DNA of 64,000 bases from Planctomycetota bacterium (GTDB lineage Bacteria > Planctomycetota > UBA11346): NCBI GenBank assembly GCA_031426335.1, contig JANPLC010000111.1:2384-66383 (forward strand), given 5' to 3'. This document shows, piece by piece, positions 24,474 through 63,750 of the stretch; positions within the stretch are counted from its first letter, which is position 1, and every line of letters starts with the position of its first letter. Made by a program: the position numbers and the translations under genes. The notes under the pieces were generated by a model. That model was not told where the DNA came from, ran no database searches, and saw only the letters and a list, made by a program, of their open reading frames with translations.

Positions 24474-24863
24474 GGGCGACCTGCCTCCTTGGGGGCGTGG
24501 TACCCCCAACACGCAGCATCGGTGGGCTGGGCCTGGCGCTTGAGGGAAATCTGGCTTGGGCTTGCTGGCCGACTCCGCCACCGCCCAGATGATTAGCCAT
24601 AAAGATTTCTTTGATAGGCGGTTGTGTCATGTCCGTCGGTCCTCCCCCTGGGACTCAGAACGCAAACCTTTGGCCAATGGTTTCCGGCGTCCGCGAAATC
24701 GGGGGTTGCCGCGGTCCGCAGCCGGTTCGTCGCGGTTCGTCACCTAGCGGGATTTCCCTCAAGCGCCCAGAACCCCTGCCGTCACTGACCCCCAGACCGT
24801 CATATGCGGTTCGCGGTACGGATACCGCTCTCGGCTCCCAACCAACACCCCACGGAGGAAATC

Positions 24864-27409: not shown

Positions 27410-27754
27410 TTATGGGCCGCGAGCCGTGCGGCGTGCGGCGTGCGGCGTTTTGCGAGATCGTCGCGTGCGGTGTTTTCCCATGCGGATGACGGGGCCGAAC
27501 AGCGGTTCGCGGCGTGAGCCGCGAGAACCGGGTGGTCATCCGGCGTTTGCTCGAGTGCTCTGCGGACCTCGCCACCATCGCCGCAAAGCCTTGTGAAAAT
27601 TGCAGCTGGATGAACCGAGTGGCGTGCGGTCGGTCGTCAACGCCGCACGTCGCACCCCGCACTCCGCACCGTGGCAAGCCCTTTTGGCACGCCGCGAGCG
27701 TTGGTGCTCCCAAGGCTCTTCACCGAGCTGGAGTTCCCAACACGCGAGGTTCCC

Positions 27755-34373: not shown

Positions 34374-34376
34374 GGC

Positions 34377-40646: not shown

Positions 40647-41110
40647 GGCGAGTGATCAGTGGTGGAATGAGGGAAGCGAAAGTCCCAGGAACCACGGCGA
40701 AAGACCGGCCCGGAGGGCCGCGGTCCGTGTGTGTGGAGCAACCGGCGGCTGCTCTGACAACACCTGAGGTGTTACCTCATCGATCCGCTCGCATACCGGG
40801 ATGGTGACGCAGCGCCGCTCCAACGCGCGCGGCGATCACCGGTATCACCACCCGCACGAACACCATTCCTGGTGTTGCGGTGTCGCAGTCCGGCGGAACT
40901 ATCCGCCGCCATGCTCGGTCATTTTTACGGCCAAATTTCTATACCCGTTAACGCTGCGCATCTACTTATCATCACCGCAGCTTGCGTGTCCTAAGACTGA
41001 GCAACGAACTTGTCACAGCCCCACCAACCAACCGTTTCGCCGTGCGTGCCTGATGGCCGAGGTCACCTCGTCACCATCGGATGCACCTGAAGATCACCCG
41101 GGAGTTCACC

Positions 41111-49813: not shown

Positions 49814-51619
49814 ATGCGCCGCATCTCCAGCCCATTGCTCGTCCTCATCGCCTGTTCGATGGCCGTTCAGGCTGCCGATCAGACGACCAACCGCGCCGTG
49901 CGCCAAGAGGAGGGCCGCCAGAAGGGCCTGACCACGCAGACTTCGGCGACCGGCCGTGAGGTCTCCGGCCTGATCGACGAGTACCGTTTCAACGGACTCG
50001 GCGACGAGAACAAACTCAAGGTCCTCGACAAACTCCAGAAGGACTTGGTGCGCCTGACCGACGCCAACGTCGCTGGCGTGCAGGCGGGGGAAGACTCAAC
50101 CACCATGCCGTGGGTCACTACGCGTCTGAACGCGGCACGTCAGCTGCAGAACCTCGTCGAACTGCGCAAAGAACTGATGGCCGCCAGCACCGGGCAGGAC
50201 CACGTCATCGTCCAGATCGACAAGCTGCTCAAGCAGATGCAGGAACAATTCGGCAAGCAGCTCAAGACAGACCTCGGCGAAGTCATCCAGGAGCAACAGC
50301 GCCTGAAGGACGCCACCGAGAAGCTCGCCGAGAAGACCCTCGGTGAGAAGACCGAAAAACTCTCGGCGGAACAGAAGCAGGACCTGGAGAAAACCAGCGA
50401 CCAGCAAGAAGCGTTGGAAGAACAGGTCAAGGAAGCGATCGAGGAACTGAAGGAGCAGGCCAAGGACCAGAGCCAGCCCGAGCAGGCCAAGAGCGCCAAA
50501 GAAGCACTGGAGAAACTCCAGGATCCCAAAGTCCAAGAAGCGATCGAAGAAGCAGCGAAGGACATCAAAGACAATCAATTAGCGCAGGCGCAGGAAGCGC
50601 AGCAGCAAGTGCTCGATGCGCTGAAGGAAGCGCAGCAGGAACTCGCGCAGAGCGACGCTGCCGACAGCCAGCCACAGGATCCTTCCGCCGCCGAACTCGA
50701 ACAGCAGCTCGCGCAGCTGGAGAACATCGCCGAACAGCAGCAGCAACTCCTCGACAAGACCAACGCGCTCGACGCCCAGAGCACCCCGCAAGAATTCAAT
50801 CAGCTCCAGGCCCAGCAGGCTGAACTCCAAAGCCAGACAGCTGAATTGGCGAAGGACATGCAGTCGGCCGCTCAGCAGGCCCAGCAGCAGGCCCTGGAAA
50901 AGCAGCAGGCCGCCCAGCAGGCGCAGCAGCAGGCCCAGCAGAATCCCACCGCCGCCAATAAAGAGGCTGCTCAGCAGGCCCAGCAAGAGGCCAGCCAAGC
51001 GCAGGATGCCGCTGCCGAACAAGCGCAAGGCGCATCACCTGAGGTCCAGGAGGCGCAAGCCGCTGCTGACCAAGCGCAGGCCGCCGCCGAACAGGCCCAG
51101 CAGCAGGGCCAGGGTGAGCAGGCGCAGCAAGCACAGGCCGCCGCCGAACAGGCCCAGCAGCAGGCGCTCGCGGCGATGGCCAACAGCGCTTCCCAACAAG
51201 CCCAGCAAGCGATGCAGGCGGCTCAGCAGGACCTCGGCCAAATGGCCGAATCGCCCGCGGCGCAGGACATGCAGGCCGCGCTCGCCGCACTCGCCCAGAT
51301 GCAGGCCAGCATGCAGGAAGCCCTGAGCCAAAAGACCGGCAAACCAAAGCCCGGTAAGGGCAAGTCGGAGTCGGAAGAGCCGCCGCAACTGGTCGTGCAG
51401 AGCGAGTCGCAGACCGACAAGCCGAAGGAAGCGAAGGAACTGGGAGCCGATCTGCAGAACGGCGAAAAACGCGAACCCGCTGGCCCCGCAGCGTGGCAGG
51501 TCGGTCTGCCGCCAAAGGAACGTGAAGCGCTCAGCGCCGCGCAGAAGGACAAGTTCCCGACGCGTTACGAACGTCAGCTCGCGCTGTATTACCAGAACCT
51601 CGCCTCTGGCAGCAAGTGA
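49814..51619 (+). CDS. secreted Gln/Ala/Glu-rich coiled-coil protein (low complexity)
   Basis: Signal peptide MRRISSPLLVLIACSMAVQA. About 400 aa of heptad-like QQAQQ/EQAQ repeats. Followed directly by the next operon gene, with stop/start overlap at 51616-51619. Confidence 0.6.
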   Translation: MRRISSPLLVLIACSMAVQAADQTTNRAVRQEEGRQKGLTTQTSATGREVSGLIDEYRFNGLGDENKLKVLDKLQKDLVRLTDANVAGVQAGEDSTTMPWVTTRLNAARQLQNLVELRKELMAASTGQDHVIVQIDKLLKQMQEQFGKQLKTDLGEVIQEQQRLKDATEKLAEKTLGEKTEKLSAEQKQDLEKTSDQQEALEEQVKEAIEELKEQAKDQSQPEQAKSAKEALEKLQDPKVQEAIEEAAKDIKDNQLAQAQEAQQQVLDALKEAQQELAQSDAADSQPQDPSAAELEQQLAQLENIAEQQQQLLDKTNALDAQSTPQEFNQLQAQQAELQSQTAELAKDMQSAAQQAQQQALEKQQAAQQAQQQAQQNPTAANKEAAQQAQQEASQAQDAAAEQAQGASPEVQEAQAAADQAQAAAEQAQQQGQGEQAQQAQAAAEQAQQQALAAMANSASQQAQQAMQAAQQDLGQMAESPAAQDMQAALAALAQMQASMQEALSQKTGKPKPGKGKSESEEPPQLVVQSESQTDKPKEAKELGADLQNGEKREPAGPAAWQVGLPPKEREALSAAQKDKFPTRYERQLALYYQNLASGSK

Positions 51620-52689
51620 ACGACATGCGCGCAACCGCTGGTGTCCGGACGTGGTTTAGCCGTGCCTTGTTTGCTGTAGTACTTTCGACGTTCGTCAGCA
51701 CGGGCATGGCGGCTGATACGAGCGTCGACCAAATCGAAATCAGCCCCGCTGCCGCTAACGCCAGCAAGAAGGGCCTCGCGTGGTTGGCCAACACCCAGCG
51801 CGAAGACGGTTCGTGGGGCAGCAGCTACGGCTCGACCACTGGCATCGTCGGCGCATGCGCACTGGCGTTCATGAGCGCTGGCCATGTGCCTGGCTCGGGT
51901 GAACACGGCGTCAACACCGCGCGGGCGCTGAACTTCCTGATCAGTTGCGCCCAACCGAGTGGCCTGCTCTACAAGAACGGCATGCAGGGCGCGCCAATGT
52001 ACCACCACGCACTCGCGACGCTCGCGCTCGCCGAAGGCTGGGGCATGACGCAGGATCCCAAGATCCGCGACACGGTGAAACGTGCGATCGAACTGATCAT
52101 TGCGACGCAGAATCAAAAAGGCGGTTGGCGTTATCAGCCGCGCGTGGCCGACGATGACCTCTCGGTCACGGTGATGATGTTGATGGCGCTGCGGGCGGCG
52201 AAGGACGCCGGCATCGTGGTGCCAAAGGAAACCATCGACCTCGGCATCGAATACGTGAAGAACTGCCACAACGGCAAAGACAGCGGCAAAGACGGCGGCT
52301 TCGGTTACACCCCAGGTGGTCCGTCCGGCTTTGGCCGTACCGGTGCCGGCGTGTTGTCACTCCAGGTCGCGGGAAATTACCGCGCCAAGGAAGTGAAAGA
52401 AGGTGTCGAGTACATGATGTCGCACCAACCGGTCGGCACGTTGCCGGCGGAGAAGGAACACTATTTCTACGGCCAGTACTACGCCGCCATGGGCATCTAT
52501 CAGGCGCAGAGCGCCGGCGAATGGGGCCGTGCGGCGTGGAACAAATGGTATCCCGCCATCACCAAAGAACTGATCACCACCCAGCAACCGGACGGTCGTT
52601 GGAGCGGTGGTTTCGATCAGTACCCGACCGCGATGGCGATCCTGGTGCTCGACATCCCGTACCGTTACCTGCCGATCTATCAGCGATGA
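51616..52689 (+). CDS. secreted prenyltransferase/squalene-oxidase-repeat (alpha-alpha toroid, terpene-cyclase-like) domain protein
   Basis: Signal peptide. Repeated GxWG motifs (DGSWGSS, QKGGWRYQ, GGFGYTP, DGRWSGG) typical of the SQHop_cyclase/prenyltransferase repeat. Start is GTG 51616 or ATG 51625. Confidence 0.6.
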   Translation: MNDMRATAGVRTWFSRALFAVVLSTFVSTGMAADTSVDQIEISPAAANASKKGLAWLANTQREDGSWGSSYGSTTGIVGACALAFMSAGHVPGSGEHGVNTARALNFLISCAQPSGLLYKNGMQGAPMYHHALATLALAEGWGMTQDPKIRDTVKRAIELIIATQNQKGGWRYQPRVADDDLSVTVMMLMALRAAKDAGIVVPKETIDLGIEYVKNCHNGKDSGKDGGFGYTPGGPSGFGRTGAGVLSLQVAGNYRAKEVKEGVEYMMSHQPVGTLPAEKEHYFYGQYYAAMGIYQAQSAGEWGRAAWNKWYPAITKELITTQQPDGRWSGGFDQYPTAMAILVLDIPYRYLPIYQR

Positions 52690-53831
52690 ATTCCTGGCGG
52701 GTGTCGCTCCTCTTGAGCGCCTGCCTGACGGCGCCGCTCATCGCTGCGGATGCCAACGTCCTCGCTGGCGACGGCACACAGCAGAAAGGCGCCATCACCA
52801 GCGATGGCCGCACGCTGACCGTCGCTGGTGCCAGCGTTGCACTTGAACGTTTGGTTGCTGCGCGTTTCGCCAGCACCGTCGCCAATGAAGTCGATCAAGG
52901 CGTCGTGCTCGCCGATGGCGACGTAGTTGCCGGCGTGGTGTTGTCGGTGCAGAACAACCAGCTGGAACTGGCGAGCGATCGTTTCGGCACGCGTTCGCTG
53001 CCGCTGACCGCCGTCGCCGGCATGATCCTGGCGCCGCAATCGCTCACCACCCTCGCGCGGCTTGGCGATGAGCCCGCCGGTGGGCGCTTCCTCAACGGTG
53101 ATCGTCTGGCCGGCAGCGTAGCCTTCCTCAATCCTGCCGCCGCCGGCATCAACACTGGCAAACGCATCGTCGAGCTGCCGCGCGAGCGCTTGGCGCTGGT
53201 GCGCACTGGCACCGCCATCACCGCCGTCAGCACCACGGTGCAGCGTGTGCGTCTGATCACCGGCGAACGTCTGAGCGGCGCGCTGACGAAACTCGATGGC
53301 ACGACGCTAACGCTGAAACACGCCGCGCTCGGCGACCTCACCATTCCGCTCGCGTTGGTCGCATCGTTGTGGAGCGACGGCGGCGCGTTGACCTCGTTGA
53401 CCACCCTGCCGGCCACCGTCACGCAGGCCGGGTTCCTTGGCCCCGCAGCCCTGCCGCGTGCGAATGGTGCCGGCAATGATGGCCCGTTGCCCGTGCTCGG
53501 CAGCACCGCGGAGCAGGTTTTGCGCGTGCAGGCGCGCTGCTCGCTGACCTACACGCTCGACGGCACCAGCGACGTGTTGGTGGCTGAGATCGCGCTCGAT
53601 CCACGCGCCATCGGCCACGGCGATGCGACGGTGCGTGTTCTTGGTGACGGAAAGATGCTGGCCGAGGTCGCGCTCGCCGACGGCAAAGCTCACCTGCTCA
53701 ACGTCGTGCTCACCGGCGTACGCACCCTGGTGCTGCAGACCGAGACCGGTCCCGATGGCGTCACCACCGGCGACTTGGTCACCTGGTCGTGGCCGATGCT
53801 GGTGCGCGGCGCGCCGACGGCCGCACGCTGA
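52686..53831 (+). CDS. secreted hypothetical protein (beta-rich)
   Basis: ATGA overlap with the upstream stop (52686-52689). Signal peptide MNSWRVSLLLSACLTAPLIAADA. I recognise no family. Confidence 0.5.
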   Translation: MNSWRVSLLLSACLTAPLIAADANVLAGDGTQQKGAITSDGRTLTVAGASVALERLVAARFASTVANEVDQGVVLADGDVVAGVVLSVQNNQLELASDRFGTRSLPLTAVAGMILAPQSLTTLARLGDEPAGGRFLNGDRLAGSVAFLNPAAAGINTGKRIVELPRERLALVRTGTAITAVSTTVQRVRLITGERLSGALTKLDGTTLTLKHAALGDLTIPLALVASLWSDGGALTSLTTLPATVTQAGFLGPAALPRANGAGNDGPLPVLGSTAEQVLRVQARCSLTYTLDGTSDVLVAEIALDPRAIGHGDATVRVLGDGKMLAEVALADGKAHLLNVVLTGVRTLVLQTETGPDGVTTGDLVTWSWPMLVRGAPTAAR

Positions 53832-53907: not shown

Positions 53908-56900
53908 ATGAAACCGTTCGCACTGCTGCTCGTCCTGTTGTGCTCGTTGCCGCTGACCGCGGCCGATCTGGTGTGGCCGGCCACGCACACTGGTGATCAG
54001 CCGCCCGCGGGCTGGGAGATCCAGACGGGTGAAGGTGCGAGCCTCCGTTTTGCCGCTGGTGATCTGGTGATCCAGGCGCTGCCGCACCGTCATGCGTTGG
54101 TGTCGCGCGAGCTGGGCATCGACGGCAGCGATGCCAAACCGTTGGTGATCACGGCTTTGGTTGCGGCGGACAACGCCCGTGCCCTCGGCGGCCTGCCAAC
54201 CGCCATCGCCTTGTGGTGGGATGCGGAAAACGCGGTGCAAATCGGGCTTTCGGGTGGACAGATCGAAGCCGTCGAACATTGGGATGCGAGCCGGCGACGC
54301 GGCTGGGCGCAGTGGATTGCCGGCGGGACCGTCGGTCGCGCCAGCACCGAACAGCCTCTCTATGTCAACGAAGCTCCGGCGCACGTGCGCTTGGTGGTCA
54401 GCAGCAATGATGTCGCGGCAGCGATCAGCGCCGACGGAGTGAACTGGCGCGTGTTGGCCACGCTGCCCCGCGTCGGCACGCCGCTGGCCAAAACGCCGGT
54501 ACGGTTGGTGGTCGGCCGTGGACACGTCGGCGACGACAAGGAAAAACGCCGTCCGGCACTGGCGAACGACCTGCGCGATATCGGCGTCAAGGAAGCGCTC
54601 ACGACGCGCGTAGCCGATCTCACGATCACCAACGGTGCGGCGGCTCTGCCACGTGCGCGCTTGGTGGCCAAAGCCACTGGCTTCGAGGATCTGCGCGAAG
54701 CCGACCTCGACGCGACCACCGTCGCGCAGTGGCACCTGCTCGGACCGCTACCGCCGTCGGACAAAGCCTACGGCATCGAAGAGGCGCGTGATCTCAGCGG
54801 CGGTTTGCCGTTAATCGCCGGTCAGGACGTGCGCTGGAAACCGTACGTCGGAGAAAGTCCGGCAGATCGCCGGACGTTCAGCCTCAAACGCGCGGTGAAA
54901 TCCGAACGCGAACACCAAGTGCTCTACGCTGCCACCATCATCACTTGCGAGGCTCCGCGTTACGAACGCGTGTGGTTCGATGGCGCGCGCGCCGCGACAC
55001 TGTTCGTCAATGGTCGTCAGATCGCCGAGAAACGCATGAGCTGGGAATCCGACATCGTCGCCGACCGCTACGTCGCCACGGTGCGTTTGGCGGCGGGTCA
55101 GAACCTGCTGCTGATTCGTTTGAAGGCGGCACACGACGGACAGTGCCGTTTGGCGCTGCGCCACGAAGCCGCCACGCCGCTGCAACGCATCGCTGACCTG
55201 ACGCAGGCGATCGCTGCGTATGGTATGGATGGTGACGCCTGCGTCGCCGCGTGGTTGGAGATCAGCCAGTGGTGGGAAGTGCTCGGCCAACGTCGTCTGG
55301 CGACAGAAGCGCTGGGCCGTGGTCTGGAGCGCGAAGGCCTTACCGGCACGCAGTTGGATGCGCTGTCGTTCGCCCGCGCGCGCCTGCACGGTGAACTACG
55401 CGATGAAAAAGCGGTGCTCGCCGATATCGAGGAACTCGCCAAGCGCCGCCTGCTGGGCGAGGACGGCGATCGTCCGACCACGCGCCTCAATCTGGTGCGC
55501 CTGTGGGAACGCATGGGCTTTCCGGATCGTGCGCTTGGCGCTGCTGAAGAGTTGATCAAGGACACCACCATCGATGCGAGCACGTTGTCCGAGGCCGGTC
55601 TGGAACGCGCGCGCCTGCGCGTGCTGCTCAAACAAGAAGCTCCCATCCCAGGCGAACTGCGCGCCATCGCCGCGCGGCTGCCGGCGTCCGATCCGCTCGC
55701 CTTCGAACTGCACCTGGCGGCGCTGCGCCGTGATCGCGACGCCGCTGCGGCGCTTGCCGTCGCCGTCAACGATCGTGCGCGTCAGGCGCGGGTGTTCGCG
55801 GTGCAAGCCGCGCTCGCCGAAGAAAAAAATGACGCCGCCGGCCGCGTCGCTGCGCTGCGCAAGTTGATCACCGTCAGCGACGGCGAGTCGACCTGGGAAA
55901 GTTTACAGAGTGAACTCGCCGAGGCCCTCGCGCCCAGCGACCGCGCCGGCGCCATCAGTGCGTACAAAGCCGCGCTCGACCGTGCGCCCGCCGCTGCCCA
56001 TCCCCTGGTGGTCGCTGCGCGCAAAATTGCGGAAGCCGCCACCGGCGATGCGGCACTCGGGAAGTGGCGCGCAGCTGCAGCCCAGGCCGCACTCGCCGAT
56101 AGCGAGGCTGGCGCCCGTCTGCTGACGGACGCGCTTAAAACGCCCGCCAACTTGCCGACCGGCGATGGCGAGGCGCTGACCGCACCAGTGATCACCGACT
56201 TCCACGTCATCGGTCCGTTCGCCAATCCGGATTTCATCGCCTACAGCAAACCGCCGGTGAATCCTGAAAAGATCGATTTGAACAATCAGGTGCAGGGCAA
56301 ACGTTGGACTCGTCCCGGCAAGGAAGCCTACCGCGACGGCATTTTGAATCTGAGTGCGCTCTACAACGCGAACGACAGCGTCGCCTTTGCTTACCGTGCC
56401 ATCGCCGTTGCAGTGGCGGGTGACGGCGAACTGCTGCTCGGCTCCGACGACGGCCTGACGGTGTGGTTCAACGGGCAGAAGGTGCACGAAGACCGCGACA
56501 ACCGCGGAGTACAGCCAGGTCAGATCCGCATTCCGGTGAAATTCACCGCCGGCACCAATCGCATCCTGTGCATGGTCCAGAACGGCAACGGCGACTGGGG
56601 TCTGCACCTGCGCATCGGCGGCGCCGCCACCGGCAGCCGTGGACTGGCCGAGATCCTGGCGATGCTCGAACAAGATGCGCGTCGTCCGCGTGCGGCCGAG
56701 GCGCTGTTGGAAATGGTAGGCGGCGAGGTCGGCTCCGACCGCGGCGAAGATGCCACCGCGCTGTCGCGCCTTGGTCTACGTGCACTCAGCGATGCGCCGG
56801 TAGCGCAGGCCGCGATGGTCCGCCGACTGATCGATGAACGCCGCGACCGTCCGCGTCTGCTCAAAGACGCGAGCGGTCCGGTGCGGTGGTTGTTGTCGGC

Positions 56901-59900
56901 CAGCGAACGTCGCAGCTTTGTCGGCCGTGACGATTTGGTGCGCACGTTGCCACCGCTGGCTGCGCGCCAATTGCTCGATGCCGGTGATACCGCCGGCGCT
57001 GCCACCGTGCTGACGCGCCAGATCGGCACCAGCCTGGACGCCGACGTGCGCCGCACCGCCAACCTGGCGTTGGCGGATCTCTACCGTCTGGCGGGTTACC
57101 CGCAGGAAGCCGGCGAACGGTACAAGCGTCTGGAGCAACGCCCGGACCTCAGCGATGATCAACGTCAGGCGCTGCGCGATGGCCTGCAACGCGTGCGTGG
57201 TGCGCGCGCCGACGGCGCGGCCTTTCCGGTGTCGCTCGATGCCAACACCTTGATCGCCACCGGCGATCGTGCGCTGAGCGGCGGTGACGCCGCGCGGGCG
57301 CTGCGTTCCTACCAGCGCGCCATTGATCAGTACGGTGACGCGTTGCTCAAGCGCGATGAACGCACGTTGGTCGGCGTCGCCGCGCTGGTCGGCGAAAAGC
57401 TGCGTGGCCTTGATGCCGCTGGTCAAGAAGCCTACCGCAAACTCGCTGACCGTCGTGCTGACGAAGCACTCGCGCGTGCCGGTGGCGATCCCACCGCGCT
57501 CGGCGAAGTCGCCGTCGCGTATCCAGCAACTGGCGCTGCGGCGTCGGCGTTGCTGCGTATCGCCGACCTCGCACTCGAAGCTGGCCACGGCAACCGGGCA
57601 ACCGCCGCGCTCGCCGCGTTGTCCGCGGGCAGCGACCGCAAGCTGGGCGTGCAACTGGCCGCGCGACGCGCGTTCGCGCTGGAACTGACCGGTGAACGTG
57701 CTGGCGCCGAGGCCGCCTATGACGCGCTGGCCAAAGACTATGCCGACGTGCCGCTGATGATCGGCGGCGTCGAACGGCCGACGAAGCAATTTGTCGCTGA
57801 GCGCAAAGCGGCACTTGCCGCACGCACCGGACGCCAGGACTGGCCGACCGCCGGTGGTTCTTCCGCCCGCACTGGTCTGGGCCTGGGCACACCCGTCCCT
57901 GCCGCGCTGGTGAGCGAGACCATGCTGCCAGTGGCGTTGGCGCAGCAGGTCGCAGCGCATCGTTTCGCGCCGTCATCCTACCATCACTTGGCGCTGCAAC
58001 CGGCGGTGGTCGACGGCGTGGCTTACCTCGCCAGCGATGCCGGCCTGTACGCGGTGAACTTGAGTGACGGCACGCTGCGCTGGCGCGCCGATGTGGCACC
58101 GAGCGACGCGCCGGCGTTTGCCGGCAACTACGACGGCACGGTCAGCGTCGCCGACAGCTTGGTCGCTGCGCGCGTACGTCGAGGCGGTGCACGCGTGATC
58201 GAAGTGCGTGAAGCCAGCACCGGCGCACTGCGCTGGGCAAGCGCCACGCTGCTGGGTGCGAGCGACGCCATCAGTCCGCCGGCAGTGACCGACGGATTGG
58301 TCTACGTGGTGTTCAATGAACGCGACAACCGGTCGCGCAATACCCTCGCGGCCTTCGATCTGCGCGACGGTACGCTGCGTTGGCGGACGCCGTTGGCGGA
58401 CGGCGTCGCCAGCTTGGTGACCGCAGCGCAGCAGGAAATCGGCCTCGGCGAACACCTCGCCGCGCCGACCATTGCTGGCGGTGTGGTGTACGTCGCCACC
58501 GACATGGGTGGCGTGGTGGCGGCGGATGCGCTCACCGGCCGCGTCCACTGGGCCGCGACGTACCCGCGTTCCCGTCTTGATGCGGTGGCCAGTGCGCCGC
58601 TCATTCGGCGCCTGGCCAACCGCGCCCCGCGGGTAGTGGTGGCCGGTGAGACGCTCTACGTTGCACCGCGCGATACGCTCGCGCTGCTCGCCATCCGCCG
58701 CCTCGATGGCGCGGTGTGCTGGAGCCAAGCATTCAGCGATACACACGCGCTCATCGGTGTGGCTAGCGGCGCGCTCTACACTCAGGGTGATGGCATCACC
58801 TGCCTTGATGCGGCCACCGGTTCCGTGCGTTGGCGTTGGCGCAGCGGCACGCTGCACGGCGTGGCCGGACTTGGGATCGGACGGCTGTATGGCGCGACCA
58901 ACGAGGCTCTGGTCGAACTGGATGCGGCCGATGGTCGGATGGTTGGTCGACGGGCATGGAGCGAGTTCGCTCAGAGCGTACCGCTGGGCAACTTCATCGC
59001 GTTGAGTGACCGTCTGATAGCGGTGGGCGAAGACCGCGTCGTGGTGCTTGGCGCTGGTGACACCAAGACCGCCAAGCGGCAACAAATAGCACCACCCCCA
59101 ACCGCGACGCTCGGCACCACCGGTCTGCCGGCGGCACCGTTGACGCCGCCGTTGGCGCTGCGCTGGAACCTCAGCGCTGCGGGCGCGACGGCGCTGCACC
59201 GCGTCGGCAGTTCATTGTATGCGGACCTGGGTGATCGCCTGGTGCGCCTGGGTGACGACGGCGAACGTTTGGTGTGGTCGGGCGACAGCGCCGATGAGAT
59301 CGACGCGCTGGATACCGCTGGCGGCCTGCTGTTGTCGTTGCACGAACGCGCGCTGATCGCGCGTCGCGCGGATGACGGCCGTCTGGCCTGGACGCAGGCG
59401 CTGCCCATCGAAGACAGCGGCTTCACCCTTGATCGTGACGAAGAGCGCAAACCCAAGCGCCGTGGAGCGGTGCTACTGAGCGGCGACCAGTCGCTCGTCG
59501 CGCTCCGTCTCCTGGGCACCAACTCCGTGACGCTCTTCGATGCCGCCACCGGTAACCCGCGTGGACGTCTGAGCTATTCGGGAACGTTGGTCGCTTGCGA
59601 AGTGGCCGGTGGCCGCATCGTCGGCGTACGCCACACGGGCGAAAAACTCACCGTCGATGTGCGCACCATGCAGGGCGATGTGGTGTGGAGCGAGGAACTG
59701 AAAGCCCAAGTCCGCGAAGCGCGCCACGTGATCGCCGCTCTCGATGAAACGCGCACCACGTTGATCCTGGCGGGAGAACGCCTGACGGCGGCCATCGACG
59801 TGGGCGTCAAACCGGCAGTGCGTTGGGTGGAGACTCCGGAGATCGGCGAAGGGCCGAGCATCAGCTTCCTCAAGGACCGCATCGCGGTGTTCGCCCGCCG

Positions 59901-62900
59901 TCAGGGCCAGCAGTGGATGCTCCATCTTCTGGAAGCGACCACTGGCCGCCTGATCGCTTCCGTCGAGACGCAACGTCGCGATCGCCTAGAAGACGGTGAA
60001 AAGCCGATCTTCATCGGTGATCGTTGGATCTCGTTCGGCGAACAGAACGACCGCTTGTTGGTGATCTGCCGCGAACTCGCCACACCGGACAAAAAGCTGT
60101 GGAGCACCGACGTCGGCCACCGACATCAGAAGGGCTTGGTTGGAAGCGCAGTAGTCGGACAGACCTTGGTGCTGGTCAGCATCGATGAGGGACGGCGCTG
60201 CTCGTGGACTACCATCGAACTCAGCAATGGGCGCGTCAGCGGCACCGGTCGCGTCGATGGCATCGAACCCGCGGGACGCGAGGAACGCGTGGACGTAGCC
60301 GCGATCGGCAACCTGGTGGTGTGCGCGTCGAACCGCGGCGTGGTTGCGCTTGGCGGCCTGCCGCCGGCTGCCGATCCACTGAAAGCCGCGTTGGCAAAAC
60401 TGCGCCAGGGTGATGGCACGCCGACTGGTGATCTGCTACTGACGGTGCAGTCGCCGCCGGAAGCGCCGGCACTGGCGAGCGAAAAGCCGGTGCGTGTCGA
60501 TGGTCAGCTGAACGAGTGGAGCGGCGATGCCGCCATCGTGCTCGACCAGCGCCGTCAGGTGCGCGATTCAAACACGTGGAATGGTGCTGCGGATCTTTCG
60601 GCGCGCGCACGTGTGCAGTGGGATCCCGCGTACGTCTATGTCGCGCTGGAGGTCACCGACGATCGCTGGCAGCCCGCGGTCCCAGGCGCCAACCTCGACG
60701 ACGGCGACAGCGTGGTGCTTGGCATCGATCCCGATCCGACGCGCGACGGTGGCGAAGTGCAGCCCTTGGTGGTGTCGGTGGCGTTGGTGGATGGACGCAC
60801 GCGCATCGTGCAACGTTCCGGAACGGCCATCGGCCAGCTGAACGAAGACGATCAACCGGAAAACCGTGACGGCGAACAGCTGCATGCGCGCGTGATTCGC
60901 ACGGCGAACGGCTGGAGTGGCGAGATCGCGGTGCCATGGGCGATGCTGCGCGTCAATCCGAGCGAACGTCCAGGTTGGCGTACCGACCTGGGGCTCGGCC
61001 TGCTGGTCGTCGACCGCGACGGTGAGCGCAAACAAGCGATCGAATGGGGCGCCGGCTTGTCCGACCGCCTCAGCGATCGGCGCTTTGGCCGCGCCAAGTG
61101 CATCGACCTGACCGGCGAACGAATTGCTGGTTACCGCAAGTTCATCGACCTGCTTGGCGATCATCCCTATGCGTGGCGCTTCGCTCGCCGCATCGCCGCG
61201 ACGCACTTGGGTGTCGCTGGTCTACCTGGGCGCATCAGCGAGATCGAACGCTACGTCACCGCGCAGCCGCAGGCCGCGTCCACTGGGACGGCGCTCGCTG
61301 AGTTGGTGCGTCTGCGTCGCGCACTTGGTGATGAAGGTCCCGTCGCTGCGGTCGCGGCCTTTGCCGCCAAAGCCAAGGTCCCGCCGCGCCTCATCGGTGA
61401 TGGCGTTGGTCCGTCTGACAAAACCGGCAAACAAGGTCGGGCGCTGCGCCAGTGGGTGCGCATCGACGCGGAACGTCCGCCGCTCGAAGTGCTGATCCAG
61501 GTCCGCACCAAAGACAGCGACTGGAATCAACGCGCGTACTGGGGCCAGGATCTGATCCAATGGGGCGAGCCGCTGACGACACAACGCTGGCCGATGGGCC
61601 CGCTGCCCAAGCCTGGCACGTGGACCGCGTTGGTTATTCCGCTGGCAGCAATCGGGCTCGACGGCCGCGAGATCGACAATGTCAGTTTCAGCGTACACGG
61701 CGGTGACGTGAAATGGGGCGCGACCGAGTGGCTCGACGGCGAGAAGGTCACCACCTTGATCGATCCGGCGAAACCACCGCGCTTCGATCGCGGCGTGCAA
61801 GGCAGCGACACTGATGGCCGCAAGGCGCATGGTCTTGGCCCGCAAGGTGGCGAAGCGACGTTCCGTGTGGCCGACAACGGCGCGATCGCCGTCGATCTGC
61901 GTGGGCCGGCCGCGACGCAACCCGACCAGGCGCGCCTCCAGCGTTTCGCAGAAGCCGCGCGGTTGATCTCGCGCACCGATGAAGCGGTGGAAATGATGCA
62001 GTGGTCGGAGGCCATGCTCACCGGCGAAGGTGCCGCACGTGAACAGGCGCTGATCGCCCACTACCAAGCGTTCCTCGCCGCTGATCCGCAAACCCCGCAA
62101 GCCGCGCGTATGCTGACGCACCTGCGCCAGATGTTGGAGCAATGGACTGAGGGCAAGGACCCAGCGAAACGTGCCGCCGCGGTGACGCGCATCGGCACGC
62201 TGATGGACGACGTCAAGCTCTCGCGCGAACAACGGCGCGCGTTCCATGCTGGCTACGCCCCGGTGCTGATCGAATGGCGCGCCATCGGTTGGTTCGATCC
62301 GGGCAAGGGCGCTGCCAACCTGGGCGAAGCTCTGCCAGTCGAACGCGGGGCGCTCGATTTCTCGCAGTCTATCGCTCTCGGTGATGGACGCACGATCGGC
62401 TGGAAGGCCATCACCGGCGACTGGAACCGCGTGACCGCGGAAAAAATAAGCTCCAAGGAACGTGGTCGTTGGCCGGTGGTGTGTTTCGCCACCCGCATCG
62501 AAGTGCCGGCCGCCACCGAGGCCGTGCTCTACCTCGCTATCAATGGTCGCGCAGTCGCGCTGGTGAATGGCAAACGCCTCGGCGGCGTGGTCAGCGGCGA
62601 TGGTCACATGACACGCGACGCCATCGCGCTGCCGGTGAAGTTGGAGAAGGGGCTCAATGAGGTGCTGCTGAAACTGAGTGATCGCGAGGGCAACTCGCAG
62701 TTCATCTGCCGCTTCGCTGATCGTTCGGGAAAACCCATCGACGGCTTGGTGCCGCGTCTGCCACCGGATGTGGTGCGCGCGCACGTCGATGATGCGACCA
62801 CCGTGAAGCTGACGTTTTCCACCGCGGTGGATCCCGTCACTGCCGGCAACGTGGCCGCGTACGCACTCGACCGCGACGCCAAGGTCACCGCAGTCAAGGT

Positions 62901-63486
62901 CAGCAAAGAGAAAGACAAGGAGCCGCGTTCGGTGATTTTGACGGTGAGCCCGCTCAGCGGCTCGGCCGACTACACGCTGCGCATCACCGGCGTCACGGCG
63001 ACCAACGGCACGCCGACGGCCCCAGGAACGCGCGTGACGCTACGCCCCCCGAGCGCCGGCGATCGTGGTCTGCGCGCGGAGTTCTTCAGCGGTCGCGAGT
63101 TCACCGAACGCCTGACCGGACGCATCGATCCGATCGTCGACTTCGCCTGGGAGGACGGCGAACAACCCGATCCCGCCGTGCCGAGCGAGAGCTTCTGTGT
63201 GCGTTGGACTGGCTCGGTACAGATCTCCAAGGGTGGGCGCTGGAACTTCTTCGTCACCAGCGACGACGGCTGCCGCCTCTTCATCGACGGCAAGCAGATC
63301 ATCGATGCGTGGCGCGATCGCGCGCCTGAGGAATCTACCGGCACCACCGAACTGAAACACGGCAAACACGAGATCCGCCTGGAATATTTCCAAGGCGGCT
63401 CAGGGAAGGCGGCACACCTGGCATGGGAAGGCCCCGGCCAAGAGAAGGCGATCATCGCGGCGGAGTTCCTGACGCCGCCGAAGTGA
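53908..63486 (+). CDS. giant secreted multidomain protein (3192 aa): beta-sandwich repeats, TPR-like helical regions, PQQ-like beta-propeller, CBM9/DOMON-like module, Ig-like domain, C-terminal PA14 domain
   Basis: Single uninterrupted ORF with signal peptide MKPFALLLVLLCSLPLTAA.
- PQQ/BamB-like repeats (GLVYVVFNERDN...GTLRWRTPL; GGVVYVATDMGGVVAADALTGRVHWA).
- CBM9-like module (VDGQLNEWSGDAAIV...WDPAYVYVALEVTDD).
- PA14-like C-terminus (GLRAEFFSGREF...FCVRWTGSVQISKGGRWNFFVTSDDGCRLFIDGKQIIDAW).
- Three copies of a ~80-aa beta-sandwich unit. Confidence 0.8.
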   Translation: MKPFALLLVLLCSLPLTAADLVWPATHTGDQPPAGWEIQTGEGASLRFAAGDLVIQALPHRHALVSRELGIDGSDAKPLVITALVAADNARALGGLPTAIALWWDAENAVQIGLSGGQIEAVEHWDASRRRGWAQWIAGGTVGRASTEQPLYVNEAPAHVRLVVSSNDVAAAISADGVNWRVLATLPRVGTPLAKTPVRLVVGRGHVGDDKEKRRPALANDLRDIGVKEALTTRVADLTITNGAAALPRARLVAKATGFEDLREADLDATTVAQWHLLGPLPPSDKAYGIEEARDLSGGLPLIAGQDVRWKPYVGESPADRRTFSLKRAVKSEREHQVLYAATIITCEAPRYERVWFDGARAATLFVNGRQIAEKRMSWESDIVADRYVATVRLAAGQNLLLIRLKAAHDGQCRLALRHEAATPLQRIADLTQAIAAYGMDGDACVAAWLEISQWWEVLGQRRLATEALGRGLEREGLTGTQLDALSFARARLHGELRDEKAVLADIEELAKRRLLGEDGDRPTTRLNLVRLWERMGFPDRALGAAEELIKDTTIDASTLSEAGLERARLRVLLKQEAPIPGELRAIAARLPASDPLAFELHLAALRRDRDAAAALAVAVNDRARQARVFAVQAALAEEKNDAAGRVAALRKLITVSDGESTWESLQSELAEALAPSDRAGAISAYKAALDRAPAAAHPLVVAARKIAEAATGDAALGKWRAAAAQAALADSEAGARLLTDALKTPANLPTGDGEALTAPVITDFHVIGPFANPDFIAYSKPPVNPEKIDLNNQVQGKRWTRPGKEAYRDGILNLSALYNANDSVAFAYRAIAVAVAGDGELLLGSDDGLTVWFNGQKVHEDRDNRGVQPGQIRIPVKFTAGTNRILCMVQNGNGDWGLHLRIGGAATGSRGLAEILAMLEQDARRPRAAEALLEMVGGEVGSDRGEDATALSRLGLRALSDAPVAQAAMVRRLIDERRDRPRLLKDASGPVRWLLSASERRSFVGRDDLVRTLPPLAARQLLDAGDTAGAATVLTRQIGTSLDADVRRTANLALADLYRLAGYPQEAGERYKRLEQRPDLSDDQRQALRDGLQRVRGARADGAAFPVSLDANTLIATGDRALSGGDAARALRSYQRAIDQYGDALLKRDERTLVGVAALVGEKLRGLDAAGQEAYRKLADRRADEALARAGGDPTALGEVAVAYPATGAAASALLRIADLALEAGHGNRATAALAALSAGSDRKLGVQLAARRAFALELTGERAGAEAAYDALAKDYADVPLMIGGVERPTKQFVAERKAALAARTGRQDWPTAGGSSARTGLGLGTPVPAALVSETMLPVALAQQVAAHRFAPSSYHHLALQPAVVDGVAYLASDAGLYAVNLSDGTLRWRADVAPSDAPAFAGNYDGTVSVADSLVAARVRRGGARVIEVREASTGALRWASATLLGASDAISPPAVTDGLVYVVFNERDNRSRNTLAAFDLRDGTLRWRTPLADGVASLVTAAQQEIGLGEHLAAPTIAGGVVYVATDMGGVVAADALTGRVHWAATYPRSRLDAVASAPLIRRLANRAPRVVVAGETLYVAPRDTLALLAIRRLDGAVCWSQAFSDTHALIGVASGALYTQGDGITCLDAATGSVRWRWRSGTLHGVAGLGIGRLYGATNEALVELDAADGRMVGRRAWSEFAQSVPLGNFIALSDRLIAVGEDRVVVLGAGDTKTAKRQQIAPPPTATLGTTGLPAAPLTPPLALRWNLSAAGATALHRVGSSLYADLGDRLVRLGDDGERLVWSGDSADEIDALDTAGGLLLSLHERALIARRADDGRLAWTQALPIEDSGFTLDRDEERKPKRRGAVLLSGDQSLVALRLLGTNSVTLFDAATGNPRGRLSYSGTLVACEVAGGRIVGVRHTGEKLTVDVRTMQGDVVWSEELKAQVREARHVIAALDETRTTLILAGERLTAAIDVGVKPAVRWVETPEIGEGPSISFLKDRIAVFARRQGQQWMLHLLEATTGRLIASVETQRRDRLEDGEKPIFIGDRWISFGEQNDRLLVICRELATPDKKLWSTDVGHRHQKGLVGSAVVGQTLVLVSIDEGRRCSWTTIELSNGRVSGTGRVDGIEPAGREERVDVAAIGNLVVCASNRGVVALGGLPPAADPLKAALAKLRQGDGTPTGDLLLTVQSPPEAPALASEKPVRVDGQLNEWSGDAAIVLDQRRQVRDSNTWNGAADLSARARVQWDPAYVYVALEVTDDRWQPAVPGANLDDGDSVVLGIDPDPTRDGGEVQPLVVSVALVDGRTRIVQRSGTAIGQLNEDDQPENRDGEQLHARVIRTANGWSGEIAVPWAMLRVNPSERPGWRTDLGLGLLVVDRDGERKQAIEWGAGLSDRLSDRRFGRAKCIDLTGERIAGYRKFIDLLGDHPYAWRFARRIAATHLGVAGLPGRISEIERYVTAQPQAASTGTALAELVRLRRALGDEGPVAAVAAFAAKAKVPPRLIGDGVGPSDKTGKQGRALRQWVRIDAERPPLEVLIQVRTKDSDWNQRAYWGQDLIQWGEPLTTQRWPMGPLPKPGTWTALVIPLAAIGLDGREIDNVSFSVHGGDVKWGATEWLDGEKVTTLIDPAKPPRFDRGVQGSDTDGRKAHGLGPQGGEATFRVADNGAIAVDLRGPAATQPDQARLQRFAEAARLISRTDEAVEMMQWSEAMLTGEGAAREQALIAHYQAFLAADPQTPQAARMLTHLRQMLEQWTEGKDPAKRAAAVTRIGTLMDDVKLSREQRRAFHAGYAPVLIEWRAIGWFDPGKGAANLGEALPVERGALDFSQSIALGDGRTIGWKAITGDWNRVTAEKISSKERGRWPVVCFATRIEVPAATEAVLYLAINGRAVALVNGKRLGGVVSGDGHMTRDAIALPVKLEKGLNEVLLKLSDREGNSQFICRFADRSGKPIDGLVPRLPPDVVRAHVDDATTVKLTFSTAVDPVTAGNVAAYALDRDAKVTAVKVSKEKDKEPRSVILTVSPLSGSADYTLRITGVTATNGTPTAPGTRVTLRPPSAGDRGLRAEFFSGREFTERLTGRIDPIVDFAWEDGEQPDPAVPSESFCVRWTGSVQISKGGRWNFFVTSDDGCRLFIDGKQIIDAWRDRAPEESTGTTELKHGKHEIRLEYFQGGSGKAAHLAWEGPGQEKAIIAAEFLTPPK

Positions 63487-63502
63487 TTGCGGATCACCGT
63501 GG

Positions 63503-63637
63503 GGCGACTCGGTAACCGCAGAGACGCAGAGCACCGCAGAGGGCCGCAGAGCGCAGAAAACGGGTGGATAAAGCCGTCGAGTTTCGTCTCTGCGGCCCTC
63601 CTCTCACCTCTGCGTCTCTGCGGTTAACGAGTCGCTC
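63503..63637 (+). terminator. very long (~50-bp stem) imperfect hairpin immediately after the giant gene, probable operon terminator/structured element
   Basis: GGGCGACTCGGTAACCGCAGAGACGCAGAG...GGGCCGCAGAG (63503-63550) pairs with CTCTGCGGCCC...CTCTGCGTCTCTGCGGTTAACGAGTCGCTCC (63587-63637), with a 36-nt loop. It is followed by GATTTTGG. Confidence 0.45.
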
Positions 63638-63750
63638 CACGGCGATTTTGGTCAGGGGGTTCACTCTCCCCCGGCGTCTCGCCTGACCTCCCAGTAGCCC
63701 GCCGGGAACTCCGCCACACCATCCGCGCTTCACCCGTTGGGAAGTGCGCC

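Follow-up and report, generated by a model that had tools for sequence, protein, structure and literature searches.

The locus considered here lies in a 64,000-nucleotide stretch of DNA from a Planctomycetota bacterium (the window) and comprises nine genes, all in the same orientation and with start/stop overlaps of 4 nt. The last of them encodes a protein of 3192 aa, which we call the giant. The genes, in their order, and the element that follows them are:

41081..42166, plus strand: MoxR-type AAA+ ATPase, gene 1 of the operon (Pfam AAA_3, E 2e-63; AAA_lid_2)
42234..43163, plus strand: DUF58 (VWA-like) protein (Pfam DUF58, E 6e-40)
43163..45457, plus strand: BatA-type protein, N-terminal double-transmembrane domain and VWA domain (Pfam BatA, VWA_2; NCBIfam TIGR02226)
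45460..47841, plus strand: second VWA / DUF7408 / GATase1-like protein (Pfam; orthologous genes in L004 and L089)
47808-49586, plus strand: DUF4175 membrane protein (Pfam DUF4175)
49814-51619, plus strand: secreted Q/A/E-rich coiled-coil protein (from the translation)
51616..52689, plus strand: secreted prenyltransferase/terpene-cyclase-like alpha/alpha-toroid (Pfam SQHop_cyclase_C/N, Prenyltrans; signal-like N-terminus)
52686..53831, plus strand: secreted NPCBM/NEW2-domain protein, 381 aa (Pfam NPCBM, E 3e-11)
53908..63486, plus strand: the giant
63493..63646, no strand: long imperfect hairpin with 59-nt arms, 85% complementary, and a 36-nt loop (repeat search)

The stop of the toroid gene overlaps the start of the NPCBM gene by 4 nt, and a 381-aa gene is called in L001. 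The AT skew is 0.42 at 50-52 kb, over the region of the coiled-coil gene, and flagellin genes are found near the giant locus. The hairpin stands directly 3' of the giant's stop codon, occurs as a single copy in the window, and is possibly an operon terminator or a mobile palindromic element.

The giant is encoded by one uninterrupted reading frame with an ATG start and zero internal stops, and has a size of ~340 kDa. Its sole hydrophobic stretch (a 19-mer) falls within aa 3-24 and is signal-peptide-like, with a cleavage site between ..PLTA and AD; A18, A19, W23 and P24 of this region are invariant across the giant family, and AF2 places a helix of low confidence there. Read by eye, the N-terminus is of the signal-peptidase-I type and shows no lipoprotein signal. 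The giant is therefore predicted to be exported, with a single N-terminal signal peptide, which agrees with the description of a secreted protein in the earlier note. The AF2 models of the giant cover aa 1-1200 and aa 2100-3192, the latter being poor (pLDDT 54.6). The segments assigned along the chain are:

53908..53967, plus strand: Sec-type signal peptide, aa 1-20, MKPFALLLVLLCSLPLTA followed by AD (only hydrophobic 19-mer)
53968..54657, plus strand: ConA-like lectin/glucanase-fold beta-sandwich, aa ~21-250
54706..55167, plus strand: unit 1 (U1), galactose-binding-like jelly roll, aa ~267-420 (hhalign, Pfam, unit profile)
55177..56139, plus strand: helical solenoid 1, TPR-like, 18 helices, aa ~424-744 (AF2, pLDDT 75-90; Foldseek)
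56176..56622, plus strand: unit 2 (U2), galactose-binding-like jelly roll, aa ~757-905 (hhalign)
56635..57912, plus strand: helical solenoid 2, TPR-like, aa ~910-1335 (AF2 helices up to aa 1200, where the model ends)
57925..59007, plus strand: beta-propeller 1, BamB/PQQ_2 type, aa ~1340-1700 (Pfam, NCBIfam)
59008..60357, plus strand: beta-propeller 2, aa ~1701-2150 (hhalign, blade motifs, further PQQ_2 stretches)
60475..61077, plus strand: CBM9-like (DOMON-related) beta-sandwich, aa ~2190-2390 (Pfam CBM9_1)
61105..61407, plus strand: helical linker module Xa, six AF2 helices, aa ~2400-2500 (AF2, conservation)
61420..61743, plus strand: 'RAYWG' beta domain, ~105 aa, aa ~2505-2612 (HMMER scan)
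61915..62259, plus strand: helical module Xc, aa ~2670-2784 (AF2 helices, model residues 575-705)
62260..62727, plus strand: unit 3 (U3), galactose-binding-like jelly roll, aa ~2785-2940 (hhalign)
62770..63027, plus strand: Ig-like domain, weak Big_5, aa ~2955-3040 (Pfam, AF2)
63064..63456, plus strand: PA14 domain, aa 3053-3183 (Pfam)

We consider the three repeated units before the rest of the chain. A self-BLAST of the giant finds no internal repeats, and pairwise BLAST between the units is borderline (U1-U2, E 0.03; U2-U3, E 0.001; U1-U3, no match), so that profiles are needed to show their homology. With hhalign profiles built from 12 family members, all three pairs align with Prob 95.7-96.8 and E 3e-10 to 1e-8 over 141-151 columns, against Prob <20 for some 100 control pairs of other giant segments, the exceptions being propeller pieces (80-87) and U2-PA14 (63). 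By these profile comparisons the units are truly homologous. The earlier note had seen three similar units of ~80 aa and set a proper alignment of them as its test: the alignment is significant for every pair and the similarity holds, while the length does not, since each unit spans ~150 aa, opening with a W-x-x-x-G-P/W-F/L motif, and only the C-terminal halves had been marked. The type of fold is indicated by several matches. U1 (aa 336-421) reaches 26.3 bits against Pfam RhaB_D2/CBM_35 (cutoff 27; CBM_35 weak), and the unit profile matches the C-terminal jelly rolls of GH35 enzymes (3d3a, 6eon) at E 2e-7, and the GH2 sugar-binding domain, the sialate O-acetylesterase 7kmm and RhaB at E 4e-4 to 0.15; AF2 gives both U1 and U2 as beta-sandwiches. 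As judged from these matches, the units are galactose-binding-like jelly rolls of GH35/GH2 type. The U2 motifs D[FW][HY]VIGPF and G[ASC]DDGL[TV]VW occur in the genomes of ~76 other species, mostly PVC-superphylum and Armatimonadota MAGs, and the genome scan keyed on these motifs retrieves mostly unrelated proteins with that jelly roll.

Between the units lie two helical regions, in which AF2 predicts paired-helix solenoids with at least 18 regular helices per solenoid region. The best Foldseek matches of the 1200-aa model are TPR scaffolds with low TM scores (0.1-0.28). The first of them is 9hmf_K, a periplasmic scaffold of the C. jejuni flagellar motor; with its very low TM score and generic TPR scaffolds dominating the matches, we take it as a sign of TPR-likeness only, despite the flagellin genes nearby. 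The TPR-like stretches of the earlier note are helical in the prediction; Pfam TPR models give no match to the giant at E<=1, and in the homologue P0144 the TPR matches are sub-threshold only. Solenoid 2 and propeller 1 together align with a Humisphaera TPR-PQQ protein (P0019, 1637 aa) over ~700 columns at E 5e-17.

Propeller 1 holds three stretches of Pfam PQQ_2 (PF13360) at aa 1378-1642 (E 3e-23; 83.1 bits, passing the cutoff of 27.6), and the blade motif 'D/TG..RW' is repeated in it. Propeller 1 (P1) matches two pieces of propeller 2 (P2a and P2b) with hhalign Prob 86-87. A PQQ/BamB propeller had been proposed earlier at ~57990-59700; the type is right, but the region extends to aa ~2150 and holds two propellers. 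The NCBIfam BamB models score 54.5 bits (TIGR03300) and 47.9 bits (PRK11138) over aa 1360-1688, failing cutoffs of 285 and 423. We reject a BamB orthologue on these scores, far below the equivalog cutoffs, and on the 3192-aa length, the two propellers and the signal-peptidase-I type N-terminus.

Downstream of the propellers, Pfam CBM9_1 (PF06452) passes its cutoff at aa 2216-2387 (27.1 bits against 23.4) and is precomputed on most homologues of the giant. The X region that follows is kept entire in distant giants, and its profile has no match among PDB sequences; the same holds for the profile of the N-terminal domain. The first module of the X region, Xa, lies in the confident part of the C-terminal AF2 model (pLDDT 66-89) and is highly conserved in sequence. 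The RAYWG domain, in which R-A-Y-W-G, G, P, G and W are invariant, has no match in Pfam, NCBIfam or PDB. A HMMER scan of 1.84 billion representatives returns 1843 matches to it, of which 1247 are at E<=1e-10; the domain is frequently found in tandem arrays with a period of ~165 aa, and the clusters bearing it come from several bacterial phyla and one eukaryote. With ~105-165 aa and more than 1,200 protein clusters, it deserves definition as a family.

In most of the distant family members the chain stops at U3, and the tail beyond it is variable. The Ig-like domain is an AF2 beta-sandwich (pLDDT ~80) with a Big_5 score of 18.8 bits at aa 2959-3036, under the cutoff of 23.6, and is missing in most distant relatives. 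The PA14 domain (PF07691) is clear (E 2.8e-21; 76.3 bits against a cutoff of 24) and accessory, being missing in P0012, P0060 and P0062 and N-terminal in P0109. For the CBM9-like and PA14 domains the Pfam ranges agree within a few codons with those first proposed, as does the weak, below-cutoff Big_5 match with the Ig-like range. No full-length family model for the giant is found, and the relatives carry generic source names ('PQQ-binding-like beta-propeller repeat protein', 'BamB', 'PA14 domain-containing protein'), in keeping with the earlier remark that the combination is not a described family. Four things go beyond what that note contained: the neighbouring operon, the ConA-like domain at the N-terminus, a second propeller, and RAYWG.

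The next question is whether this architecture is peculiar to the gene in the window. By sequence comparison it is not: colinear relatives of ~3000 aa with 25-88% identity occur in dozens of protein clusters, only in Planctomycetota MAGs. A word-index search with a profile of the N-terminal 1340 aa gives only proteins that have a domain in common with it. Every segment of the giant is under purifying selection (dN/dS 0.08-0.31), and the constraint is strongest on the helical and X modules (0.08-0.10; solenoid 1, 0.087; solenoid 2, 0.099; X region, 0.081), which fits interaction surfaces better than linkers. The helical/propeller core is better conserved than the lectin ends. Uniform conservation together with the dN/dS values rules out a pseudogene or mis-assembly, and the giant is, on this evidence, a real, conserved protein of uncultured Planctomycetota.

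The neighbourhood of the gene is conserved in part of the family. What characterises a Bat/MoxR-MRP operon, namely an AAA_3 MoxR, a DUF58 and a TIGR02226 BatA gene on the same strand, is found at this locus. A conserved operon with the giant at its end is seen in five lineages, and the giant alone in four others. L002 (59% identity), L089 (39%) and L004 (30%) share the order from BatA-VWA to toroid, NPCBM and giant, and in L003 (44%), where the contig breaks off at this point, nothing but the NPCBM gene can be seen beside the giant; in all four the NPCBM gene is directly upstream of the giant. Homologues of the NPCBM protein are found by word-index search only in the same clade, at an identity of at least 53%, and only where the giant occurs. 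The colinear relatives P0060, P0062, P0144 and P0186 (25-31% identity) have no adjoining Bat/MoxR genes, which shows that the giant can work without the module and that the linkage may be co-regulation only. One unlinked relative follows an AsmA/DUF748 gene and a TPR gene, an envelope-biogenesis setting.

Bat-type MoxR/VWA operons are widespread, but to our knowledge they have no established biochemical role, and we know of no established function of the planctomycetal Bat operon. A literature search on the operon in Planctomycetes, on DUF4175 and on the RAYWG motif gave nothing relevant. The BatA-type VWA domain of Borrelia BB0173 is periplasmic (PMC5700661), so that contact of such a domain with an exported partner is topologically possible. 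Leptospira Bat mutants are reported not to confirm the proposed oxidative-stress role (PMC3557215).

Combining this information, we arrive at a reading in which the giant is a Sec-exported, non-enzymatic, glycan-/protein-binding envelope scaffold of the periplasm or surface that has been recruited to a Bat-type MoxR/VWA module in this lineage; we judge the chances of this reading to be about even. By their family assignments, all detectable domains of the giant are binding or scaffold modules and, together with its place at the end of a Bat-type operon, this makes an envelope scaffold most likely rather than an enzyme. The analysis establishes the intactness of the gene, its export signal, the domain identities, the internal triplication, the purifying selection and the conserved synteny; glycan binding and a scaffold role, both proposed in the earlier note, are read from the domain families, and the localisation, the formation of a complex and the coupling to MoxR/VWA are inferred. 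The mature chain would run from the ConA-like sandwich through a jelly roll, a TPR-like solenoid, a second jelly roll and a second solenoid to the two BamB/PQQ_2-type propellers, and then through the CBM9-like domain, a helical module, the RAYWG domain and another helical module to the third jelly roll and the accessory Ig and PA14 tail. The ConA-like domain, the three jelly rolls, the CBM9-like domain and PA14 would hold the giant on a glycan polymer (an envelope polysaccharide, peptidoglycan or an external polysaccharide), and partner proteins would dock on the solenoids and propellers. The gene would be co-transcribed as the ninth and last of the operon, the cytoplasmic MoxR AAA+ chaperone would service the inner-membrane VWA and DUF4175 proteins, and these may anchor or assemble an extracytoplasmic complex whose large platform is the giant, with the small secreted toroid and NPCBM proteins. 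Such an arrangement would be analogous to that of the TPR proteins BatC and BatE in the Bat operons of Bacteroides and spirochaetes.

While it is possible to see the giant as a free-standing surface adhesin or polysaccharide-capture protein, with lectin modules that bind environmental glycans in attachment or in capturing substrate, and a Bat neighbourhood that is incidental or reflects shared regulation, we hold this to be unlikely, if a serious contender. The four distant colinear homologues that are stand-alone genes speak for it, as do the PA14, CBM9-like, NPCBM-type and jelly-roll modules, which are typical of carbohydrate-active and adhesin proteins, and the shuffling of PA14 between termini across lineages, which is common in surface proteins. 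However, the toroid/NPCBM/Bat synteny, with its tightly spaced genes, still holds at 30-39% protein identity, the lectin ends are less conserved than the core, and Pfam, NCBIfam and hydrophobicity searches detect no cell-wall anchor, outer-membrane beta-barrel, type V or type IX secretion or sorting signal in the giant. A bolder version of the scaffold reading is doubtful: that the nine genes form an undescribed envelope-spanning machine, in which an inner-membrane MoxR/VWA/DUF4175 module assembles or powers the giant as a periplasmic lectin-TPR-double-propeller platform, along with the toroid and NPCBM proteins, and that RAYWG is separately a new, widespread extracellular domain family. If true, the machine could be a structural part of a planctomycetal polysaccharide-capture or envelope-biogenesis apparatus.

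An enzymatic role, with the ConA-like domain as a GH16- or PL7-like glycanase/lyase or the propellers as a quinoprotein dehydrogenase, and with the other modules targeting the substrate, appears very improbable. The ConA-like fold is common to the N-terminal domain and to GH16 and PL7 enzymes, but the best structural matches of this domain are the non-catalytic GH43 C-terminal domain and a DUF1349-type sandwich, and its family-invariant residues, read by eye, hold no GH16 ExDxxE and no PL7 QIH or YFKAG motif. The weak quinoprotein matches fail their cutoffs (PF01011 PQQ, 25.6 bits against 26.7; TIGR03075 PQQ_enz_alc_DH, 34 against 480) and the propeller is nearer to the non-catalytic BamB/PQQ_2 type, on which grounds we reject a quinoprotein dehydrogenase; no catalytic family is found in the giant at E<=1 in Pfam or NCBIfam. 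Hardly credible is a MoxR-vWA-beta-propeller ternary conflict system with the giant as its propeller sensor or effector. Such systems have a bpMoxR-clade ATPase, a vWA protein with variable C-terminal effectors and a cytoplasmic propeller (Kaur, Burroughs, Iyer, Aravind 2020, PMC7159879). The operon does hold MoxR, VWA proteins and a propeller protein, and Pfam bpMoxR matches the ATPase with 47 bits, but AAA_3 is far better (212 bits), and the company of DUF58 and a BatA double-transmembrane VWA protein is that of a classical Bat/MRP operon. Among the domains of the VWA proteins are BatA, DUF58 and DUF7408 but no effectors; the propeller protein is predicted to be exported and made of lectin modules, it is under uniform purifying selection with no diversification, and its relatives occur without MoxR.

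Under the envelope-scaffold reading, a Bat-type operon is tied to the giant, NPCBM and toroid genes across lineages diverged to 30% protein identity, and the synteny suggests that MoxR/VWA has an extracytoplasmic client or partner associated with glycans, for which it names concrete proteins. Giant mosaic genes are common in Planctomycetota, and if this giant is just another multi-lectin surface protein it is routine for the phylum. The organisation of the planctomycetal envelope and its polysaccharide handling are poorly understood, and the giant family is a candidate structural component.

Among the known systems nearest to the locus are the Bat/MoxR-MRP operons of Bacteroidota and spirochaetes (BatI/MoxR, DUF58, BatA, BatB, BatC, BatD, BatE), which have the same order of MoxR, DUF58 and BatA-type VWA genes, likewise followed by extracytoplasmic proteins rich in TPR-like structure. 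Where those operons have the small TPR proteins BatC and BatE, DUF4175, coiled-coil, toroid and NPCBM proteins and the 3192-aa giant are found here; no match to BatD is seen, and the giant has relatives outside any such operon. The propeller type is that of BamB (YfgL)/PQQ_2 proteins, including the planctomycetal P0019, but BamB is a lipoprotein of ~390 aa with a single 8-bladed propeller, whereas the giant has two propellers and six lectin-type modules. The three units resemble in profile the jelly rolls of GH35/GH2 enzymes, domain D2 of RhaB and CBM35, except that they are scattered along the chain without a catalytic TIM barrel and carry a PVC-typical N-terminal W-x-x-x-GPF motif; the same type is present in unrelated planctomycetal giants, e.g., the DUF7133/HEAT/cytochrome c protein of Limnoglobus roseus. 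With the giant PA14/CBM surface proteins of bacteria the protein shares its size, export signal, PA14/CBM modules, Ig-like spacer and domain shuffling. It differs from them in lacking a recognised anchoring or dedicated secretion domain, and in its core of two alpha-solenoids and two propellers, where the surface giants have long Ig, cadherin or RTX arrays.

We begin by considering the gene of the giant, which the earlier note had taken for one ORF encoding a secreted protein of 3192 aa. A single intact ORF is indeed found (53908..63486, + strand, ATG start, 3192 aa, uninterrupted), and the N-terminus of its product, MKPFALLLVLLCSLPLTAADL, reads as a Sec-type signal peptide with an A-x-A-like site. 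Inside this segment, residues 3-24 form the sole strongly hydrophobic 19-residue stretch; no membrane segment follows the signal peptide, and the mature protein has ~340 kDa and a pI of 6.5. A protein identical to the giant is recorded twice, in an NCBI contig of 78 kb and in a Logan assembly. Among 5.8 billion clustered proteins there are 11 full-length homologues at 43-88% identity, plus one at 30%, and conservation is even from end to end. Relative to an 83%-identical orthologue (locus L005), dN/dS is 0.14 overall and 0.08-0.31 per segment, with the lowest values (0.08-0.10) in the two helical solenoids, H1 and H2, and in the X region. The even conservation and low dN/dS therefore mark the gene as genuine and functional, and together with the second records they rule out an assembly or frame artefact.

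Domains of the giant (aa positions)
~267-420, U1, homologous unit of ~150 aa
~757-905, U2, homologous unit of ~150 aa
1378-1642, PQQ_2, best of three Pfam stretches, E 3e-23
2216-2387, CBM9_1, Pfam, 27.1 bits versus a gathering score of 23.4
~2505-2612 (window 61420-61743), RAYWG beta domain, also in proteins P0039, P0040, P0046, P0058 and P0117
~2785-2940, U3, homologous unit of ~150 aa
2959-3036, Big_5 (Ig), Pfam, sub-threshold
3053-3183, PA14, Pfam, E 3e-21

Self-BLAST of the giant finds no internal repeat, and pairwise BLAST of the extended units U1-U3 is marginal (U1-U2, E 0.03; U2-U3, E 0.001; U1-U3, without match). When unit profiles are cut from a 12-member family alignment and compared by hhalign, all three pairs match at Prob 95.7-96.8 and E 3e-10 to 1e-8 over 141-151 columns. 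The control is an all-against-all hhalign of 15 giant segments, in which every pair stays below Prob 20 save the propeller pieces (80-87) and U2 versus PA14 (63). The three similar units of ~80 aa that had been claimed are thus homologous by hhalign, although the true unit is ~150 aa and only the C-terminal halves had been noticed. The unit starts with W-x-x-x-G-P/W-F/L, and its conserved columns include W, NG, G-x-N, G and R. Its combined profile matches the C-terminal domains of GH35 beta-galactosidases (3d3a, 6eon; E 2e-7), the GH2 sugar-binding domain (E 4e-4 to 0.01), a sialate O-acetylesterase (7kmm) and rhamnosidase B; from these matches to solved jelly rolls, U1-U3 are predicted to be galactose-binding-domain-like jelly rolls. 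In Pfam, U1 is near threshold for RhaB_D2 (26.3 bits versus 27) and also for CBM_35. The U2 motifs occur in unrelated proteins of ~76 other species-representative genomes, mostly MAGs of the PVC superphylum and Armatimonadota (e.g., a 1720-aa DUF7133/HEAT/cytochrome c protein of Limnoglobus roseus), and the unit is, judged by sequence, a promiscuous module. One further protein (P0018, 1092 aa) combines Peptidase_S9, NPCBM and a U-type jelly roll, so NPCBM and jelly-roll modules co-occur in single enzymes elsewhere too.

The first helical region (aa 424-744) has 18 helices and the second, from aa 910 on, has at least 18; both are modelled as regular paired-helix solenoids, and their best Foldseek matches are TPR scaffolds such as IFT-A, Ski3 and Ctr9, at low TM. 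Pfam TPR models give no match on the giant, and a distant homologue has sub-threshold TPR matches only. The term "TPR-like", used in the earlier note, therefore describes the structure and assigns no family.

The claimed PQQ/BamB propeller is borne out by the PQQ_2 match, but a second one had been missed: the propeller pieces score Prob 80-87 against each other (hhalign), which makes aa 1700-2170 a second propeller. The BamB models of NCBIfam span aa 1360-1688 at 54 bits versus a cutoff of 285, and the quinoprotein dehydrogenase model reaches 34 bits versus a cutoff of 480; by these Pfam and NCBIfam scores the propellers are BamB/PQQ_2-like and non-catalytic. The coordinates proposed for CBM9, Ig and PA14 fall within a few codons of the Pfam matches, that of Ig being sub-threshold. 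For the N-terminal ConA-like domain Foldseek also recovers the 3mep and 3o12 sandwiches, and no GH16 or PL7 catalytic motif is found on reading its family-invariant residues.

Neither Pfam nor the PDB offers a sequence match for the X region (aa 2400-2785, from the CBM9-like domain to U3). Its profile, run exhaustively by HMMER against 1.84 billion representatives, returns 1843 matches, 1247 of them at E<=1e-10, in two classes: the RAYWG part alone and the whole X region. The first class covers profile positions about 105-207 only (giant aa ~2505-2612), often as a tandem array, which can reach 9 copies and repeats every ~165 aa, and has the invariant signature ...PP-x-E-x-M-x-Q...W-x-H-R-A-Y-W-G...G...R...G-x-L-P-x-x-G-x-W...L-x-x-P...G-L...F...G-G...W-D. 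The giant carries the C-terminal ~two-thirds of this domain (~105 aa versus ~165 aa in the full form). RAYWG is carried by "hypothetical proteins" from Verrucomicrobiota and Acidobacteriota and by one eukaryote protein (Paratrimastix); array proteins are labelled "hypothetical protein" in Verrucomicrobiota and S8 peptidase in Vicinamibacterales. The array repeats have no Pfam or NCBIfam match and no PDB relative. RAYWG is a widespread domain without a curated model, and its exposure here is new.

The second class leads to a wider family of the giant, with members of about 2500-3800 aa that are colinear with it by BLAST: P0038 at 39% identity (giant query 18-3188), P0060 and P0062 at 31% (query ~1-2950), and P0090, P0100, P0144, P0158, P0176 and P0053 in several colinear segments at 25-32%. 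To judge from these alignments, the family is broader than the word-indexed search had suggested; close full-length relatives are present in only 3 of 185,579 species-representative genomes, and the scanned isolates include no cultivable relative with the locus. Most of these colinear relatives stop at U3, and the Ig and PA14 tail is therefore accessory; PA14 is N-terminal, not C-terminal, in P0109, and P0012 (2524 aa) ends soon after the CBM9-like domain. Relatives to which their source gives a name are Planctomycetota MAG proteins, labelled "PQQ-binding-like beta-propeller repeat protein", "BamB" or "PA14 domain-containing protein". A stand-alone TPR-PQQ protein from Humisphaera, shorter than the giant, can be aligned to the junction of H2 and propeller 1 (E 5e-17, ~700 columns), which makes the core part of a broader planctomycetal TPR-propeller group. 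A 1.85-kb fragment 94% identical to the giant lies in a MAG labelled Myxococcales (L007, JANNWK010000436.1); it is probably a binning error and no real cross-phylum occurrence.

We turn our attention to the genes upstream of the giant, which form a Bat-type operon.

Operon genes (window positions, strand)
41081-42166, +, gene 1, MoxR AAA_3 ATPase
42234-43163, +, gene 2, DUF58
43163-45457, +, gene 3, BatA double-TM + VWA
45460-47841, +, gene 4, VWA/DUF7408/GATase1-like
47808-49586, +, gene 5, DUF4175 membrane protein
49814-51619, +, gene 6, secreted Q/A/E-rich coiled-coil protein
51616-52689, +, gene 7, secreted prenyltransferase/terpene-cyclase-like alpha/alpha-toroid protein
52686-53831, +, gene 8, secreted NPCBM protein
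63493-63646, directly after the giant's stop, imperfect palindrome/hairpin (59-nt arms, 85% complementary, 36-nt loop)

At several gene boundaries start and stop codons share 4 nt, and 76 nt separate the NPCBM gene from the giant. The coiled-coil protein (601 aa, low complexity, extremely Q/A/E-rich, ending ...YERQLALYYQNLA) causes an AT skew of 0.42; its gene and the preceding ORF look like a DUF4175-type protein split in two, and the same pair, ~600 aa each, is seen in loci L089, L002 and L004. The palindrome, rich in CGCAGAG repeats and occurring once within the window, could act as a terminator or else represent a small mobile element of palindromic type. Elsewhere in the window, two tandem giant flagellins (24804-27344 and 27671-30238, + strand; 846 and 855 aa) each have Flagellin_N and Flagellin_C ends around a ~600-aa central insert. 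Between them and the MoxR operon, 30313-32187 (+) and 33327-40261 (-) hold a Maf/MptE-like protein and a nonulosonic-acid biosynthesis cluster (NeuB fused to a CMP-transferase domain, UDP-GlcNAc 2-epimerase, Polysacc_synt_2, GNAT, methyltransferase, CBS-nucleotidyltransferase), a probable flagellin glycosylation island.

The order from BatA-VWA to toroid, NPCBM and giant is kept in L002 (59% orthologue), L089 (39% clade) and L004 (P0012, 30%). In a 44% relative the NPCBM gene lies directly upstream of the giant homologue, at the contig end, and homologues of the NPCBM protein are found in the giant's clade only. Four colinear relatives are without Bat linkage.

P0060, adjoins a divergent ABC-2 permease gene
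P0062, flanked by divergent genes, RNase III among them
P0144, AraC-like gene before, Laminin_G_3 gene after
P0186, L090 5151-9875 upstream: AsmA/DUF748 gene and 964-aa TPR/Peptidase_MA_2 gene

The neighbours of P0186 hint at a link of the family to outer-membrane or envelope biogenesis. Judged by these gene orders, the Bat linkage is old; one part of the family conserves it, yet it is not obligatory.

The next question is what the giant does. Its recognisable modules all bind or dock, nothing catalytic is detected and it is exported; it is therefore read as an extracytoplasmic scaffold, and the strong constraint on the solenoids and the X region is counted towards this. We give an even chance to a large glycan-holding, partner-organising scaffold that is the exported arm of a Bat-type MoxR/VWA envelope system. 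As many as six lectin-type modules would hold a glycan polymer, the solenoids and propellers would organise partner proteins, and in the window's lineage the giant would be the distal exported part of the system; we infer every functional step here, from glycan binding and localisation to interaction and MoxR dependence. The relatives unlinked to Bat genes favour the main rival, a multi-lectin surface or adhesion protein that stands by itself and owes its place in the operon to co-regulation only, a solution that we regard as rather unlikely. That the giant is an enzyme is improbable, given the quinoprotein score of 34/480 bits, an N domain without GH16/PL7 motif and no catalytic module detected. 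Least credible is a MoxR-vWA-propeller conflict system (PMC7159879), disfavoured by membership tests on its defining features.

Taken singly, the domains of the giant are of known kinds, the RAYWG module excepted. Exported proteins of giant size and mosaic build are common in Planctomycetota; what is new is the definition of a colinear ~3000-aa family and its recurrent joining to a Bat-type operon with toroid and NPCBM proteins. Classical bat loci of Bacteroides and spirochaetes encode TPR proteins. The role of the giant would be functionally analogous to theirs (PMC3557215, PMC5700661). Because the BatA-like VWA domain of Borrelia faces the periplasm (PMC5700661), a direct contact between the giant and a VWA protein would, by analogy, be topologically plausible.
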